Source: Escherichia coli (lineage in GTDB: Bacteria > Pseudomonadota > Gammaproteobacteria > Enterobacterales > Enterobacteriaceae). Taken from it: a stretch of DNA of 64,000 nt. The stretch is taken from assembly GCF_009931435.1 (NCBI RefSeq), contig NZ_CP043414.1; one strand, written 5' to 3'. The position numbers were made by a program, and so were the translations under genes. Below the pieces are notes generated by a model. That model searched no databases. It was not told the DNA's origin and saw nothing but the letters and a program-made list of their open reading frames with translations. Positions 10,226 to 51,908 of the stretch are shown in pieces. The first letter of the stretch is position 1. Every line of letters begins with the position of its first letter.

Positions 10226-10247
10226 AAGGGCCGCGAAAGCGGCCCTT
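10226..10247 (+). repeat. stem-loop AAGGGCCGC-GAAA-GCGGCCCTT, copy 1 (no T-tract)
   Basis: This 22-bp sequence is identical to 10400-10421. It lies 21 nt after the tktA stop. Confidence 0.9.
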
Positions 10248-10276
10248 CAGATTATTGGCAAAGTGTGCGTTGTTCA

Positions 10277-10377
<101 letters not shown>

Positions 10378-10399
10378 TTTTGCCTTTGCCATCAGTCTC

Positions 10400-10425
10400 A
10401 AGGGCCGCGAAAGCGGCCCTTTTTT
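10400..10425 (+). terminator. stem-loop copy 2 plus T-tract, probable tktA rho-independent terminator
   Basis: The same 22-bp hairpin is followed by TTTTT. The stop codon of the convergent SPFH gene (10424-10426) lies in the T-tract. Confidence 0.75.
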
Positions 10426-24030: not shown

Positions 24031-24056
24031 AAGGCCCGCTCTGCGGGTCTTTTTTT
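24031..24056 (+). terminator. fbaA rho-independent terminator
   Basis: AAGGCCCGC-TCT-GCGGGTCTT forms a 9-bp stem followed by a T-tract. Confidence 0.8.
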
Positions 24057-24071
24057 CGCCAAAAGCAAAAT

Positions 24072-24171
24072 TGCCTGATGCGCTACGCTTATCAGGCCTA
24101 CATGTATCCTGCAATATACTGAATTTACAGGCTTTTGTAGGCTGGATAAGGCGTTCACGCCGCATCCGGCA
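24072..24171. repeat. BIME-1 type REP pair
   Basis: TGCCTGATGCGCTACGCTTATCAGGCCTACA and TGTAGGCTGGATAAGGCGTTCACGCCGCATCCGGCA flank an AT-rich spacer. Confidence 0.9.
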
Positions 24172-24200
24172 TGACAAAGTGCACATTGATATCTGTCTGA

Positions 24201-24223
24201 GCCCCGCTCTGCGGATCTTTTTT
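24201..24223 (+). repeat. degenerate second copy of the fbaA terminator
   Basis: GCCCCGCTCTGCGGATCTTTTTT shares the core CCCGCTCTGCGG and TCTTTTTT with 24035-24056. Its stem is weaker. Confidence 0.7.
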
Positions 24224-24365
24224 CACCATAAGCAAGGTGATGCAGATGAGAAATCTGTGATCTATTTGGCAAAATTATGCTTTATTGTTTACCCTTGTCA
24301 GACTGCCCGTCATAAGGCGGCGGAGTGTATTTCTCCATTTTGAGTCAGTTGAAAAGGAATATTGA

Positions 24366-45218: not shown

Positions 45219-48092
45219 ATGACACAGACGTTAAGCCAGCTTGAAAACAGCGGCGCTTTTATTGAACGCCATATCGGACCGGACGCCGCGCAACAGCAAG
45301 AAATGCTGAATGCCGTTGGCGCACAATCGTTAAACGCGCTGACCGGCCAGATTGTGCCGAAAGATATTCAGCTTGCGACCCCGCCGCAGGTTGGCGCACC
45401 GGCGACCGAATACGCCGCGCTGGCGGAACTCAAGGCTATTGCCAGTCGCAATAAACGCTTCACGTCTTACATCGGCATGGGTTACACCGCCGTGCAGTTA
45501 CCGCCGGTTATCCTGCGTAACATGCTGGAAAATCCGGGCTGGTATACCGCGTATACTCCGTATCAACCTGAAGTCTCCCAGGGCCGCCTTGAAGCACTGC
45601 TCAACTTCCAGCAGGTAACGCTGGATTTGACTGGCCTGGATATGGCTTCGGCTTCTCTTCTTGACGAAGCCACCGCTGCCGCCGAAGCAATGGCGATGGC
45701 GAAACGCGTCAGCAAACTGAAAAATGCCAACCGCTTCTTTGTTGCTTCTGACGTGCATCCGCAAACGCTGGATGTGGTACGTACTCGTGCCGAAACCTTT
45801 GGTTTTGAAGTGATTGTCGATGACGCGCAAAAAGTGCTGGATCACCAGGACGTCTTCGGCGTGCTGTTACAGCAGGTCGGCACTACCGGTGAAATTCACG
45901 ACTACACCGCGCTTATCAGCGAACTGAAATCACGCAAAATTGTGGTCAGCGTTGCCGCCGATATTATGGCGCTGGTGCTGTTAACTGCGCCGGGTAAACA
46001 GGGCGCGGATATTGTCTTTGGTTCGGCGCAACGCTTTGGCGTACCGATGGGCTACGGTGGCCCGCACGCGGCATTCTTTGCGGCGAAAGATGAATACAAA
46101 CGCTCAATGCCGGGCCGTATTATTGGTGTATCGAAAGATGCTGCGGGCAATACCGCGCTGCGCATGGCGATGCAGACTCGCGAGCAACATATTCGCCGTG
46201 AGAAAGCGAACTCCAACATTTGTACTTCCCAGGTACTGCTGGCAAACATCGCCAGCCTGTATGCCGTTTATCACGGTCCGGTTGGCCTGAAACGTATCGC
46301 TAACCGCATCCACCGTCTTACTGATATCCTGGCTGCAGGTCTGCAACAAAAAGGTCAGAAGCTGCGCCATGCGCACTATTTCGATACTTTGTGTTTGGAA
46401 GTGGCCGACAAAGCGGGCGTGCTGGCGCGTGCCGAAGCGGCTGAAATCAACCTGCGTAGCGATATTCTGAATGCGGTGGGGATCACCCTTGATGAAACCA
46501 CCACGCGCGAAAACGTGATGCAGCTTTTCAGCGTACTGCTGGGCGATAATCACGGACTGGACATCGACACGCTGGACAAAGACGTGGCTCACGACAGCCG
46601 TTCTATTCAGCCTGCAATGCTGCGCGATGACGAAATGCTCACCCATCCGGTGTTTAATCGCTACCACAGCGAAACCGAAATGATGCGCTATATGCACTCG
46701 CTGGAGCGTAAAGATCTGGCGCTGAATCAGGCGATGATCCCGCTGGGTTCCTGCACCATGAAACTGAACGCCGCCGCCGAGATGATCCCAATCACCTGGC
46801 CGGAATTTGCCGAACTGCACCCGTTCTGCCCGCCGGAACAGGCCGAAGGTTATCAGCAGATGATCGCGCAACTGGCTGACTGGCTGGTGAAACTGACCGG
46901 TTACGACGCCGTCTGTATGCAGCCGAACTCTGGCGCTCAGGGCGAATACGCGGGGCTGCTGGCGATTCGTCATTATCATGAAAGCCGCAACGAAGGACAT
47001 CGCGATATCTGCCTGATCCCGGCTTCTGCGCATGGCACTAACCCGGCTTCCGCGCATATGGCAGGAATGCAGGTGGTGGTTGTGGCGTGTGATAAAAACG
47101 GCAACATCGATCTGACTGACCTGCGCGCGAAAGCGGAGCAGGCGGGCGATAATCTCTCCTGCATTATGGTGACCTATCCTTCCACCCACGGCGTGTACGA
47201 AGAAACGATCCGTGAAGTGTGTGAAATCGTGCATCAGTTCGGCGGTCAGGTTTACCTTGATGGCGCGAACATGAACGCCCAGGTTGGCATCACTTCGCCG
47301 GGCTTTATTGGCGCGGACGTTTCGCACCTTAACCTGCATAAAACTTTCTGCATTCCGCACGGCGGTGGTGGTCCGGGTATGGGACCGATCGGCGTGAAAG
47401 CGCATTTGGCACCGTTTGTTCCGGGTCATAGCGTGGTGCAAATCGAAGGCATGTTAACCCGTCAGGGCGCGGTTTCTGCGGCACCGTTCGGTAGCGCTTC
47501 TATTCTGCCAATTAGCTGGATGTACATCCGCATGATGGGCGCAGAAGGGCTGAAAAAAGCAAGCCAGGTGGCAATCCTCAACGCCAACTATATTGCCAGC
47601 CGCCTGCAGGATGCCTTCCCGGTGCTGTATACCGGTCGCGATGGTCGCGTGGCGCACGAATGTATTCTCGATATTCGCCCGTTGAAAGAAGAAACCGGCA
47701 TCAGCGAGCTGGATATTGCCAAGCGTCTGATCGACTATGGTTTCCACGCGCCGACCATGTCGTTCCCGGTGGCGGGGACGCTGATGGTAGAACCGACTGA
47801 ATCTGAAAGCAAAGTGGAACTGGATCGCTTTATCGACGCGATGCTGGCTATCCGCGCAGAAATTGACCAGGTGAAAGCCGGTGTCTGGCCGCTGGAAGAT
47901 AACCCGCTGGTGAATGCTCCGCACATTCAGAGCGAACTGGTCGCCGAGTGGGCGCATCCGTACAGCCGTGAAGTTGCAGTATTCCCGGCAGGCGTGGCAG
48001 ATAAATACTGGCCGACAGTGAAACGTCTGGATGATGTTTACGGGGACCGTAACCTGTTCTGCTCCTGCGTACCGATTAGCGAATACCAGTAA
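45219..48092 (+). CDS. gcvP: glycine dehydrogenase (decarboxylating), P protein
   Basis: 957 aa ([22 protein letters not shown]). Confidence 0.97.
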
Positions 48093-48114: not shown

Positions 48115-48134
48115 AAAGGCGCTTCGGCGCCTTT
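48115..48134 (+). repeat. stem-loop AAAGGCGC-TTCG-GCGCCTTT, copy 1 (no T-tract)
   Basis: This 20-bp sequence is identical to 48288-48307. It lies 23 nt after the gcvP stop. Confidence 0.9.
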
Positions 48135-48157
48135 GACACTGATGTCAAACTCAACAT

Positions 48158-48257
48158 TGCCTGATGCACCTCGTTTATCAGGCCTACATAGTCTGTGCAA
48201 TGTATTGAATTTGCACGATCTTGTAGGCTGGATAAGGCGTTCACGCCGCATCCGGCA
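48158..48257. repeat. BIME-1 type REP pair
   Basis: TGCCTGATGCACCTCGTTTATCAGGCCTACA and TGTAGGCTGGATAAGGCGTTCACGCCGCATCCGGCA flank the spacer gtgcaatgtattgaatttgcac. Confidence 0.9.
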
Positions 48258-48287
48258 TAATAAAAGCACTTTGTCATCAATAATTTG

Positions 48288-48315
48288 AAAGGCGCTTCGG
48301 CGCCTTTATTTTTTT
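48288..48315 (+). terminator. stem-loop copy 2 plus T-tract, probable gcvP terminator
   Basis: The same 20-bp hairpin is followed by ATTTTTTT. Confidence 0.8.
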
Positions 48316-48325
48316 AGGAAAACAA

Positions 48326-49069
48326 ATGACTATAGCACTTGTGACCGGTGGCAGTCGCGGCATCGGGCGGGCAACTGCATTACTGTTGGCGCAAGAAGGG
48401 TATACGGTGGCGGTTAATTATCAGCAAAACCTCCACGCGGCGCAGGAAGTGGTGAAGTTAATCACGCAAGCCGGTGGCAAGGCATTCGTGCTTCAGGCGG
48501 ATATCAGCGACGAAAATCAGGTCATCGCAATGTTTACAGCAATCGATCAGCACGATGAACCGCTAGCCGCGCTGGTCAATAACGCCGGGATCTTGTTTAC
48601 CCAGTGCACCGTAGAAAACCTTACCGCAGAGCGAATCAACCGGGTACTTTCCACCAATGTGACGGGATATTTTCTCTGCTGCCGCGAGGCGGTAAAGCGC
48701 ATGGCGCTTAAGAACGGCGGTAATGGCGGTGCTATCGTCAATGTCTCGTCAGTGGCTTCACGGCTGGGATCGCCGGGAGAATACGTTGACTATGCGGCAT
48801 CGAAAGGGGCGATTGATACGTTAACCACAGGGCTGTCACTGGAAGTCGCCGCGCAGGGGATCCGCGTTAACGGCGTGCGGCCAGGGTTTATTTATACCGA
48901 AATGCACGCCAGCGGTGGCGAACCTGGACGCGTTGATCGCGTTAAGTCGAACATCCCCATGCAGCGTGGCGGACAGGCGGAAGAGGTCGCGCAGGCCATC
49001 GTCTGGCTGTTAAGTGATAAAGCCTCTTATGTCACGGGAAGTTTTATCGATTTGGCGGGTGGAAAATAA
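48326..49069 (+). CDS. ygfF: short-chain dehydrogenase/reductase YgfF
   Basis: 247 aa with TGGSRGIG and the catalytic YAASK motif. Confidence 0.9.
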   Translation: MTIALVTGGSRGIGRATALLLAQEGYTVAVNYQQNLHAAQEVVKLITQAGGKAFVLQADISDENQVIAMFTAIDQHDEPLAALVNNAGILFTQCTVENLTAERINRVLSTNVTGYFLCCREAVKRMALKNGGNGGAIVNVSSVASRLGSPGEYVDYAASKGAIDTLTTGLSLEVAAQGIRVNGVRPGFIYTEMHASGGEPGRVDRVKSNIPMQRGGQAEEVAQAIVWLLSDKASYVTGSFIDLAGGK

Positions 49070-49125
49070 AACAGGAAAGTTATCTGACCGGATGCAACGA
49101 GTATTGCATCCGGTACTTCATCGAC

Positions 49126-51751: not shown

Positions 51752-51908
51752 GTAGGCCTGATAAGACGCGTCAGCGTCGCATCAGGCATCGGATCGCAAC
51801 TGCCGGATGCGGCGTGAACGCCTTATCCGGCCTACGGGCCGCGTCCTTGGTGTGATAAAGGCACCAAATCCCAGGCATGATAAGACGCGTCAGCGTCGCA
51901 TCAGGCAA
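51752..51908. repeat. REP cluster (three REP units) between convergent yqfA and ygfZ
   Basis: TGATAAGACGCGTCAGCGTCGCATCAGGCA occurs twice in direct orientation (51759-51788 and 51878-51907). The unit TGCCGGATGCGGCGTGAACGCCTTATCCGGCCTAC lies between them. Confidence 0.9.

Follow-up and report, generated by a model that had tools for sequence, protein, structure and literature searches.

A BIME-1 element very probably inserted into the gcvP terminator of Escherichia coli and duplicated its hairpin

Introduction

BIME-1 (also RIB or RIP) is a bacterial interspersed mosaic element (BIME) in which a Y and a Z1 palindromic unit are parted by an L motif that binds IHF. One such element lies between gcvP and ygfF in the 64,000-nucleotide stretch of Escherichia coli DNA analysed here (from contig NZ_CP043414.1, assembly GCF_009931435.1; hereafter the window), and the same 20-bp hairpin stands on both sides of it. 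The two identical hairpins are very probably a target-site duplication left by the insertion of BIME-1 into the intrinsic terminator of gcvP. Strains are on record as differing in whether they have whole BIME-1 elements, as mentioned in PMC1187871 with reference to Bachellier 1997.

The closest precedent is the Yersinia element YPAL (RU-2). As PMC2229807 summarises De Gregorio et al. 2006, YPAL is ~168 bp long, is not A+T-rich and carries internal inverted repeats; its target duplications are 3-26 bp, and the targets span or adjoin a dyad symmetry. According to the same summary, YPAL loci show filled/empty polymorphisms, and YPALs are transcribed with the upstream genes, whose transcript stability they might influence (PMC2229807). 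In comparison, the gcvP unit is 173 bp with one hairpin copy included, and the duplications around BIME-1 are 5 to ~38 bp at stem-loops. De Gregorio and colleagues are said to have found that many YPAL targets overlap Rho-independent terminators. BIME-1 shares with YPAL the variable-length duplications at dyad-symmetric or terminator-like targets, a likeness drawn from descriptions of YPAL and not from its sequences. YPAL belongs to another genus and is not described as REP-built or IHF-binding.

REP doublets (REP, repetitive extragenic palindrome) are thought to be mobilised by RAYT, an IS200/IS605-like Y1 transposase and the usual candidate mobiliser. BIME-1 shares the REPIN architecture of an inverted REP pair with a spacer, and TnpA-REP of E. 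coli can cut BIME DNA and join it again in vitro (PMC3333891). However, single-strand transposition of the IS200/IS605 type involves neither terminal inverted repeats nor target duplication (PMC3333891, PMC2817692), and BIME-1 has both. Delihas (2011) considered REPs to be without the signatures of miniature inverted-repeat transposable elements (MITEs), whereas the BIME-1 described here shows defined inverted-repeat ends and flanking duplications. A 2026 preprint holds REP/BIME insertion to be semi-random and its mechanism unknown. Terminal inverted arms, hairpin targeting and hairpin-length duplications are not mentioned for BIME-1 in PMC3333891, PMC2817692, PMC3184786 or the 2026 preprint; primary papers of the 1990s may have noted flanking repeats. 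The footprint observed here appears to be new to the current picture of E. coli REP/BIME mobility; the element itself is known, and its behaviour is paralleled in Yersinia.

Results

The hairpin pair and the BIME-1 of the gcvP-ygfF spacer

The window has exactly two copies of the 20-mer AAAGGCGCTTCGGCGCCTTT, at 48115-48134 and 48288-48307 (still two matches with up to 2 mismatches allowed), and 100 dinucleotide-preserving shuffles gave 0 matches to it. The original prediction had placed a 20-bp hairpin at these two positions, and both are exact matches. The copies are direct repeats, not inverted ones, with the loop TTCG in both. The proximal copy, the putative left target-site duplication, has an 8-bp stem and is followed by GACACT; without a T-tract, it does not qualify as an intrinsic terminator. 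The distal copy is followed by ATTTTTTT. Its 8-bp stem with 5 G-C pairs runs directly into the T-tract (48288-48315), as in a Rho-independent terminator, and the terminator scan marked it as the sole intrinsic-terminator-like site of the two copies. This copy together with the original T-tract would be the right target-site duplication, and the same hairpin with ATTTTTTT is present in an empty allele (L130; L numbers are our handles for the sequences read).

The 153 bp between the copies (48135-48287) are a BIME-1, and the copies abut both of its ends exactly; the 20 duplicated bases bring the unit to 173 bp. On the plus strand, the element starts next to the proximal hairpin with a 24-nt Z-side terminal arm (GACACTGATGTCAAACTCAACATT, 48135-48158; family consensus GAGACTGATGACAAACGCAAAATT), delimited by a 69-copy alignment and a motif search. 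A Z-type REP or palindromic unit (Z1 or Z2; 48159-48188), a 33-nt L linker (48189-48221) and a Y-type REP (48222-48257) follow, all placed by sequence and alignment. The 30-nt Y-side terminal arm (TAATAAAAGCACTTTGTCATCAATAATTTG, 48258-48287; consensus TGAACAAAGCGCACTTTGTCAGCAATCTG in the alignment) is an imperfect inverted repeat of the Z-side arm. The linker matches the family L motif TGCAATNTANTGAATTTNCA and holds on the minus strand a predicted IHF-like site, AATTCAATACATTG, that reads like WATCAANNNNTTR at 12/13 positions. The two REPs lie in opposite orientation and can be aligned with those of 68 other copies. Rfam matches over the element are ES036 (48180-48222) and naRNA4, the latter at the Y REP; a weak match to the Yersinia Ysr224 stays below threshold (E = 0.58).

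The inverted REP pair, the L linker with an IHF-like consensus and the occurrence as a single unit at the 3' end of a transcription unit identify the element as BIME-1 (RIB/RIP), and its Z-type/L/Y build is that of the described form. It is extragenic, between the gcvP stop (48092) and the ygfF start (48326). The T-tract after the second copy only, the REP pair between the copies and the partially inverted arms had all been pointed out in the original prediction and are confirmed, the arms being the conserved terminal arms of BIME-1 in the alignment. In comparison with other E. coli BIME-1 copies, the gcvP element has 83-85% identity, extending from query base 1-6 to 147-148 of 153, and none of these copies is a near-identical donor. 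From its sequence and that of its relatives, the behaviour of BIME-1 is that of a MITE-like, discrete and non-coding element of ~152 bp, composed of the Z-side arm, the Z-type REP, the linker with its predicted IHF-binding site, the Y REP and the Y-side arm.

Empty and filled alleles

Empty gcvP sites were sought with a synthetic junction of the left flank, one hairpin and the right flank. Three E. coli genomes match this query over 393/393 positions in a single piece at 99.7% identity. The order in the empty allele is gcvP, one hairpin, T-tract and ygfF, which equals the window minus 173 bp. In strain 2020CK-00188 (L130) the empty site reads ...tcttctAAAGGCGCTTCGGCGCCTTTatttttttaggaaaacaaATG, with one hairpin followed by ATTTTTTT and ygfF. 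This strain and the filled strain 24A16CRGN010 encode identical YgfF proteins (WP_000150658.1). The filled gcvP-ygfF allele is rare; only 8/5426 genomes show matches to 80% or more of a 601-bp query that reaches across the filled locus.

Comparisons at three further loci gave the same arrangement. Empty alleles of tkt (L005, L007) have a single hairpin, and in strain FDAARGOS_1286 the one tkt hairpin is directly followed by the T-tract. At fbaA-mscS, the one short empty allele read (L008) holds the repeated 38-nt segment in single copy, and ~30% of the genomes do not fully cover the filled query. The metE-ysgA spacer is filled in E. albertii (L020), where a 20-bp hairpin repeat flanks the element. 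The corresponding empty-site query is matched over at least 80% of its length by 3537/5426 E. coli genomes, and the one such E. coli genome read (L132) has a single hairpin. For the argG-side locus of E. whittamii (L075), no junction-spanning match was found in E. coli, the flanks being too diverged or rearranged. One-hairpin BIME-free alleles, rare at gcvP-ygfF, are thus found widely at the sister loci, and a BIME-free allele with two hairpins was not seen at any of the four loci (gcvP, tkt, fbaA, metE). The original prediction had named such two-hairpin alleles as a finding that would speak against it, and had argued for a mechanism rather than coincidence without naming the mechanism; the one-hairpin BIME-free alleles bear out that argument. 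The polarity of the change (gain versus loss) was assigned by parsimony across loci and not on a tree.

Fixed ends and flanking repeats across the family

Species-representative genomes were scanned for the exact L-motif pattern, and up to 120 stretches were taken as a sample, not a census. They yielded 69 usable BIME-1 copies, which clustering by outer flanks reduced to 44 independent loci. The copies come from E. coli, Shigella, E. albertii, E. ruysiae, E. whittamii, other Escherichia, Pseudocitrobacter and another enterobacterium. The termini are conserved as GAGACTGATGACAAA ... TTTGTCAGCAATCTG in the 69 copies, and conservation falls directly outside them. The consensus GAGACTGATGACAAA and the reverse complement of the other end, CAGATTGCTGACAAA, are identical at 12/15 positions. 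The terminal inverted repeat of the gcvP copy is weaker (9/12).

A direct repeat flush with both element ends is present at 20/44 loci and scores at least 9 at 17 of them. In the control, left and right flanks from non-orthologous loci were paired under the same boundary rule; a score of at least 5 was reached in 2.2% and of at least 8 in 0.2% of the pairs. The enrichment of flanking repeats that the original prediction had expected is therefore present (20/44 against ~2%). The repeats are specific to their locus and 5-30 nt long in the sample, typically 15-26 nt, and reach ~38 nt at the fbaA locus of the window. In the 17 long duplications, the repeat ends lie 0-3 nt from the stem feet in 15 cases on the 5' side and in 14 on the 3' side. 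The duplicated stretch is usually the whole stem-loop of a terminator-like hairpin, and the reconstructed targets resemble intrinsic terminators with an A-rich flank, a G+C stem and a T-rich flank. At 8 further loci, where a flush repeat was not detectable, a perfect stem of 8-9 bp lies 0-1 nt from the Z-side end and the Y-side end is degraded. One of the three loci with short flush repeats (L079) also has a perfect 8-9 bp stem at the Z-side end. In K-12 W3110, the BIME-1 between uspB and pitA (L137, 275-475) is flanked on both sides by the hairpin AAGCGGGCCAG(TAAA)CTGACCCGCTC, with four bases lost around the loop of the second copy.

The Z-side hairpin usually has an A-tract on its outward side (at least 5 A in 8 nt at 15 of the 44 loci), and the outer flank on the Y side is T-rich at 9 of the 44. 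These counts suggest a moderate orientation bias of BIME-1 relative to the terminated transcript. Typical E. coli BIME-1 copies were also met on very short contigs (L015, L086, L124) of assemblies labelled Rhodococcus, Alkalicoccobacillus and Brevibacterium. Two of these contigs carry a coverage near 1x in their names, and the copies are most likely contamination.

Sister loci in the window

All three BIME-1 elements of the window, after gcvP, tkt and fbaA, show the hairpin-BIME-hairpin layout with a different hairpin at each, as the original prediction had proposed. At tkt, the hairpin AAGGGCCGCGAAAGCGGCCCTT (10226-10247 and 10400-10421, plus strand) surrounds a 152-bp BIME-1 (10248-10399) in the opposite orientation. 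BIME-1 thus occurs in both orientations relative to the upstream gene. At fbaA, an imperfect direct repeat of ~38 nt (24031-24068 and 24199-24235, plus strand; whole locus 24031-24235) comprises the hairpin, the T-tract and 12 more nucleotides (CGCCAAAAGCAA), and the BIME-1 between the copies has a shortened Z-side arm. Most of that arm is missing, and the target sequence CGCCAAAAGCAA resembles the missing part, TGACAAACGCAA. The junction may therefore be a microhomology junction. The orthologous fbaA-mscS locus of E. whittamii (L126) retains an exact 18-nt repeat tail. A BIME-2 in the window (a three-REP cluster at 51754-51907) served as a control; only the internal REP repeat was found there, and no unique flanking repeat.

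Probable insertion at the stem foot and alternative explanations

BIME-1 has fixed ends, is integrated at the feet of stem-loops with stem-loop-sized duplications, occurs in both orientations and has filled and empty alleles. In the proposed insertion, BIME-1 would integrate at the foot of a G+C-rich stem-loop, and the target stretch, usually the whole stem-loop, would end up on both sides of it. The A- and T-tracts would remain outside the duplication. The proximal copy would thus be T-less, and the distal copy would retain the T-tract and stay a terminator.

How the DNA would be cut is a separate and more tentative matter, and cruciform-guided staggered nicks have somewhat less than an even chance of being correct. 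The palindromic target would be recognised as an extruded hairpin or cruciform. If both strands are then cut identically at the stem foot, the two nicks would lie one palindrome length apart, and filling of the gaps would double the palindrome. The footprint, with the variable length of its duplications, would thereby be reproduced. A wider proposal, possible but doubtful, is that BIME-1 and probably also the Yersinia YPAL integrate in a structure-guided manner, in which the secondary structure of the target and not the enzyme sets the length of the duplication. We know of no bacterial transposition system described in which a cut at the hairpin foot sets that length. If structure-guided integration is true, either RAYT has an unrecognised double-strand mode or another host or mobile nuclease spreads REP doublets. 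The location of BIME-1 at 3' ends would also follow, with each insertion rebuilding a working terminator downstream.

Several points weigh against the insertion of BIME-1 as described. No transposition event was observed, and no enzyme is assigned. RAYT/TnpA-REP is a member of IS200/IS605, a family whose transposition leaves no target duplications (PMC3333891; PMC2817692), and its C/T cleavage sites do not coincide with the duplication junctions. About half of the sampled loci have no clear duplication, and many have a decayed or truncated Y-side end. The gcvP element, at 83-85% identity and with no donor, may be an old insertion or part of an allele imported by recombination. In principle, a precise deletion between the repeats could produce the empty alleles, and the polarity at a single locus is thus not proven. 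Finally, the ~38-nt duplication and the shortened Z-side arm at fbaA, as read from the sequence, are more easily accounted for by a junction of the microhomology or template-switch kind than by a clean cut.

The main rival to insertion by cutting is replicative template switching, which is unlikely. Replication would stall at the hairpin, and the nascent strand would jump by microhomology to another BIME-1 elsewhere, copy it, re-anneal upstream and recopy the hairpin. The wide range of duplication lengths (5 to ~38 nt), the replacement of the Z-side arm at fbaA-mscS by a similar target sequence (CGCCAAAAGCAA for TGACAAACGCAA) and the absence of duplications from known REP transposases (PMC3333891) are all in its favor. 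However, the element ends are sharp and the same at most loci, and the duplication ends follow the stem feet, whereas random switching should leave ragged ends and partial elements on both sides.

Selection for a functional module is an improbable explanation. The second hairpin would have arisen or been kept for the stability of the mRNA 3' end or for termination, and gene conversion would keep the copies identical. The very stable predicted fold of the 3' untranslated region (3'UTR), in which the two copies pair with each other at minimum energy, agrees with such a module, as does the T-tract-side copy at tkt of E. ruysiae, which keeps its stem by compensatory changes. However, selection does not explain an exact, locus-specific copy flush with the element at ~20 unrelated loci. 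The T-less copy decays where it can be traced, in K-12-type strains (12/21 positions) and in E. ruysiae, whose proximal copy lost pairing. Single-hairpin BIME-free alleles, rare at gcvP-ygfF itself, are common at the sister loci.

It is very improbable that the empty alleles are the derived state, that is, that an earlier duplication of the hairpin, for example a local tandem one, received BIME-1 between its copies and that deletion later produced the single-hairpin alleles. Direct repeats of 20 bp can mediate precise deletion, and unequal exchange between the copies does occur (two units in L006, at least 5 in L093). Bachellier and colleagues reportedly read the absence of BIME-1 as excision in 1997. 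This course of events would nevertheless need, at every locus, an independent prior duplication with the right spacing and flush with a conserved 152-bp element, and the expected two-hairpin BIME-free allele is missing from all four loci. Coincidence, that is, two independent terminators that happen to be identical, draws on nothing more than the frequency of terminator hairpins at gene 3' ends and is already refuted by the 0/100 shuffle matches, the exact empty sites and the recurrence of the layout at all three BIME-1 elements of the window and at 20/44 loci.

Inverted duplication, or extension of the palindrome by fold-back synthesis, was also considered as a source of the second copy and was rejected. 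At the three loci of the window, the loops (TTCG, GAAA, TCT) are asymmetric, and the two copies read them in the same direction.

Apparent repeated targeting, arrays and decay

The gcvP-ygfF spacer takes other forms in other strains. In the K-12-type spacer (L001, 515-760; L131, 185-420), one hairpin is followed by a BIME-1 relic, whose left arm (GATGACAAAGT...) and right arm (TTTGTTAGCAATCTC) are split by a boxC repeat. The 21 nt past the right arm (AAAGATACGTCAACGAATTAA) agree with the gcvP hairpin at 12/21 positions and look like a decayed second copy. In O157:H7 and in the B2 type strain (L002, L003; 1715-1860), ygfF is absent, as it is in ~40% of genomes by a rough estimate from evenly spaced match rows. 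There, a degenerate BIME-1 in the opposite orientation comes directly after the same gcvP hairpin. The gcvP hairpin therefore appears to have been targeted repeatedly.

Tandem units were found at two places. The tkt allele of an O166:H15 strain (L006) has two units and three hairpins, and Escherichia sp. MOD1-EC7003 (L093, 7150-7930) has an array of at least 5 units, each of BIME-1 and the duplicated target, with a 162-bp period. These arrays point to unequal exchange between duplicated hairpins, by which tandem BIME arrays can grow. In the E. ruysiae orthologue of the tkt locus (L051; 10226-10421 of the window), the hairpins on the two sides have diverged. The T-tract-side copy keeps a perfect stem by paired changes, whereas the T-less copy has a wobble pair and a mismatch. 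The flanks at gcvP give no date for the insertion. Over 4 kb on either side, the divergence from the window is ~2-3% in empty and filled strains, not greater in the empty strains than in a filled one, and thus the haplotype background does not date it.

Predicted consequences for the gcvTHP transcript

With the T-tract outside the duplication, the proximal copy cannot serve for intrinsic termination. Transcription from gcvP would pass the T-less copy and BIME-1 and stop at the distal copy. BIME-1 would thereby become part of the gcvTHP 3'UTR, and termination before ygfF would be preserved. The 224-nt 3' region has a predicted folding energy of -83.3 kcal/mol (z = -8.2). At minimum energy, each hairpin copy is predicted to pair its halves with those of the other copy, closing a long stem. 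In Yersinia, YPAL-positive transcripts were reportedly found by De Gregorio and colleagues in 2006 to accumulate to higher levels. Whether or not it stabilises the mRNA, the proximal T-less hairpin is explained as a by-product of the insertion.

In annotation, a T-less hairpin upstream of BIME-1 is accordingly to be taken as an insertion scar and not as a separate regulatory element, unless shown otherwise. The insertion of BIME-1 would be tolerated because the terminator is regenerated downstream, and duplication at terminators would account for the location of BIME-1 at the 3' ends of transcription units.

Relation to other mobile elements

BIME-1 has the defined ends with inverted repeats and the flanking duplications with matching empty sites of a MITE. 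Like the classical MITEs (Correia/NEMIS, ERIC, RUP), it is small and non-coding, ends in inverted repeats, lies between direct repeats, has a foldable RNA and is often co-transcribed in a 3'UTR. However, in the classical MITEs the duplications are short and constant in length (typically TA), as determined by a DDE transposase, whereas the length at BIME-1 (5 to ~38 nt) is not fixed and follows the target stem-loop. A cognate transposase with matching inverted repeats was not identified, no systematic search having been made. The long flush duplications and the inverted arms also depart from the insertion signature of the IS200/IS605 type. The footprint thus misfits a duplication-free transposition by RAYT, which narrows the candidate mechanisms. 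Its exact ends, terminator-like stem-foot target and stem-loop-length duplication give handles on REP/BIME mobility. Cleavage by RAYT between C and T was considered as the source of the junctions and was rejected; the termini hold CT (GAGAC/TG, AATC/TG), but these sites are 5 and 2 nt distant from the junctions.

Bacterial class C group II introns reportedly home to intrinsic terminators, as described by Robart et al. in 2007. They resemble BIME-1 in using the terminator stem-loop as a recognition feature, in inserting at its foot and in reaching a harmless transcribed position. They differ in being retroelements, in inserting past the terminator and in leaving it unduplicated; BIME-1 has neither coding capacity nor a ribozyme.

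Neighbouring genes and minor features

The gene upstream of the targeted terminator, gcvP (glycine dehydrogenase; coding sequence at 45219-48092, plus strand), was assigned from the open reading frame list and the RefSeq annotation of matching E. coli records. Downstream, ygfF (SDR oxidoreductase; 48326-49069, plus strand, by the same list and annotation) has its start codon 18 nt past the distal hairpin, and bglA converges on it from 50583. A pair of promoter-like hexamers, TTGAAA and TATTTT with 16 nt between them (48285-48312), lies 14 nt before the ygfF start and overlaps the distal hairpin; it may be due to chance, with 1 site in the region against a shuffle mean of 0.9. A single REP-like palindrome, CCGGATGCAACGAGTATTGCATCCGG (49076-49112), stands in the interval where ygfF and bglA converge and has no flanking direct repeat.

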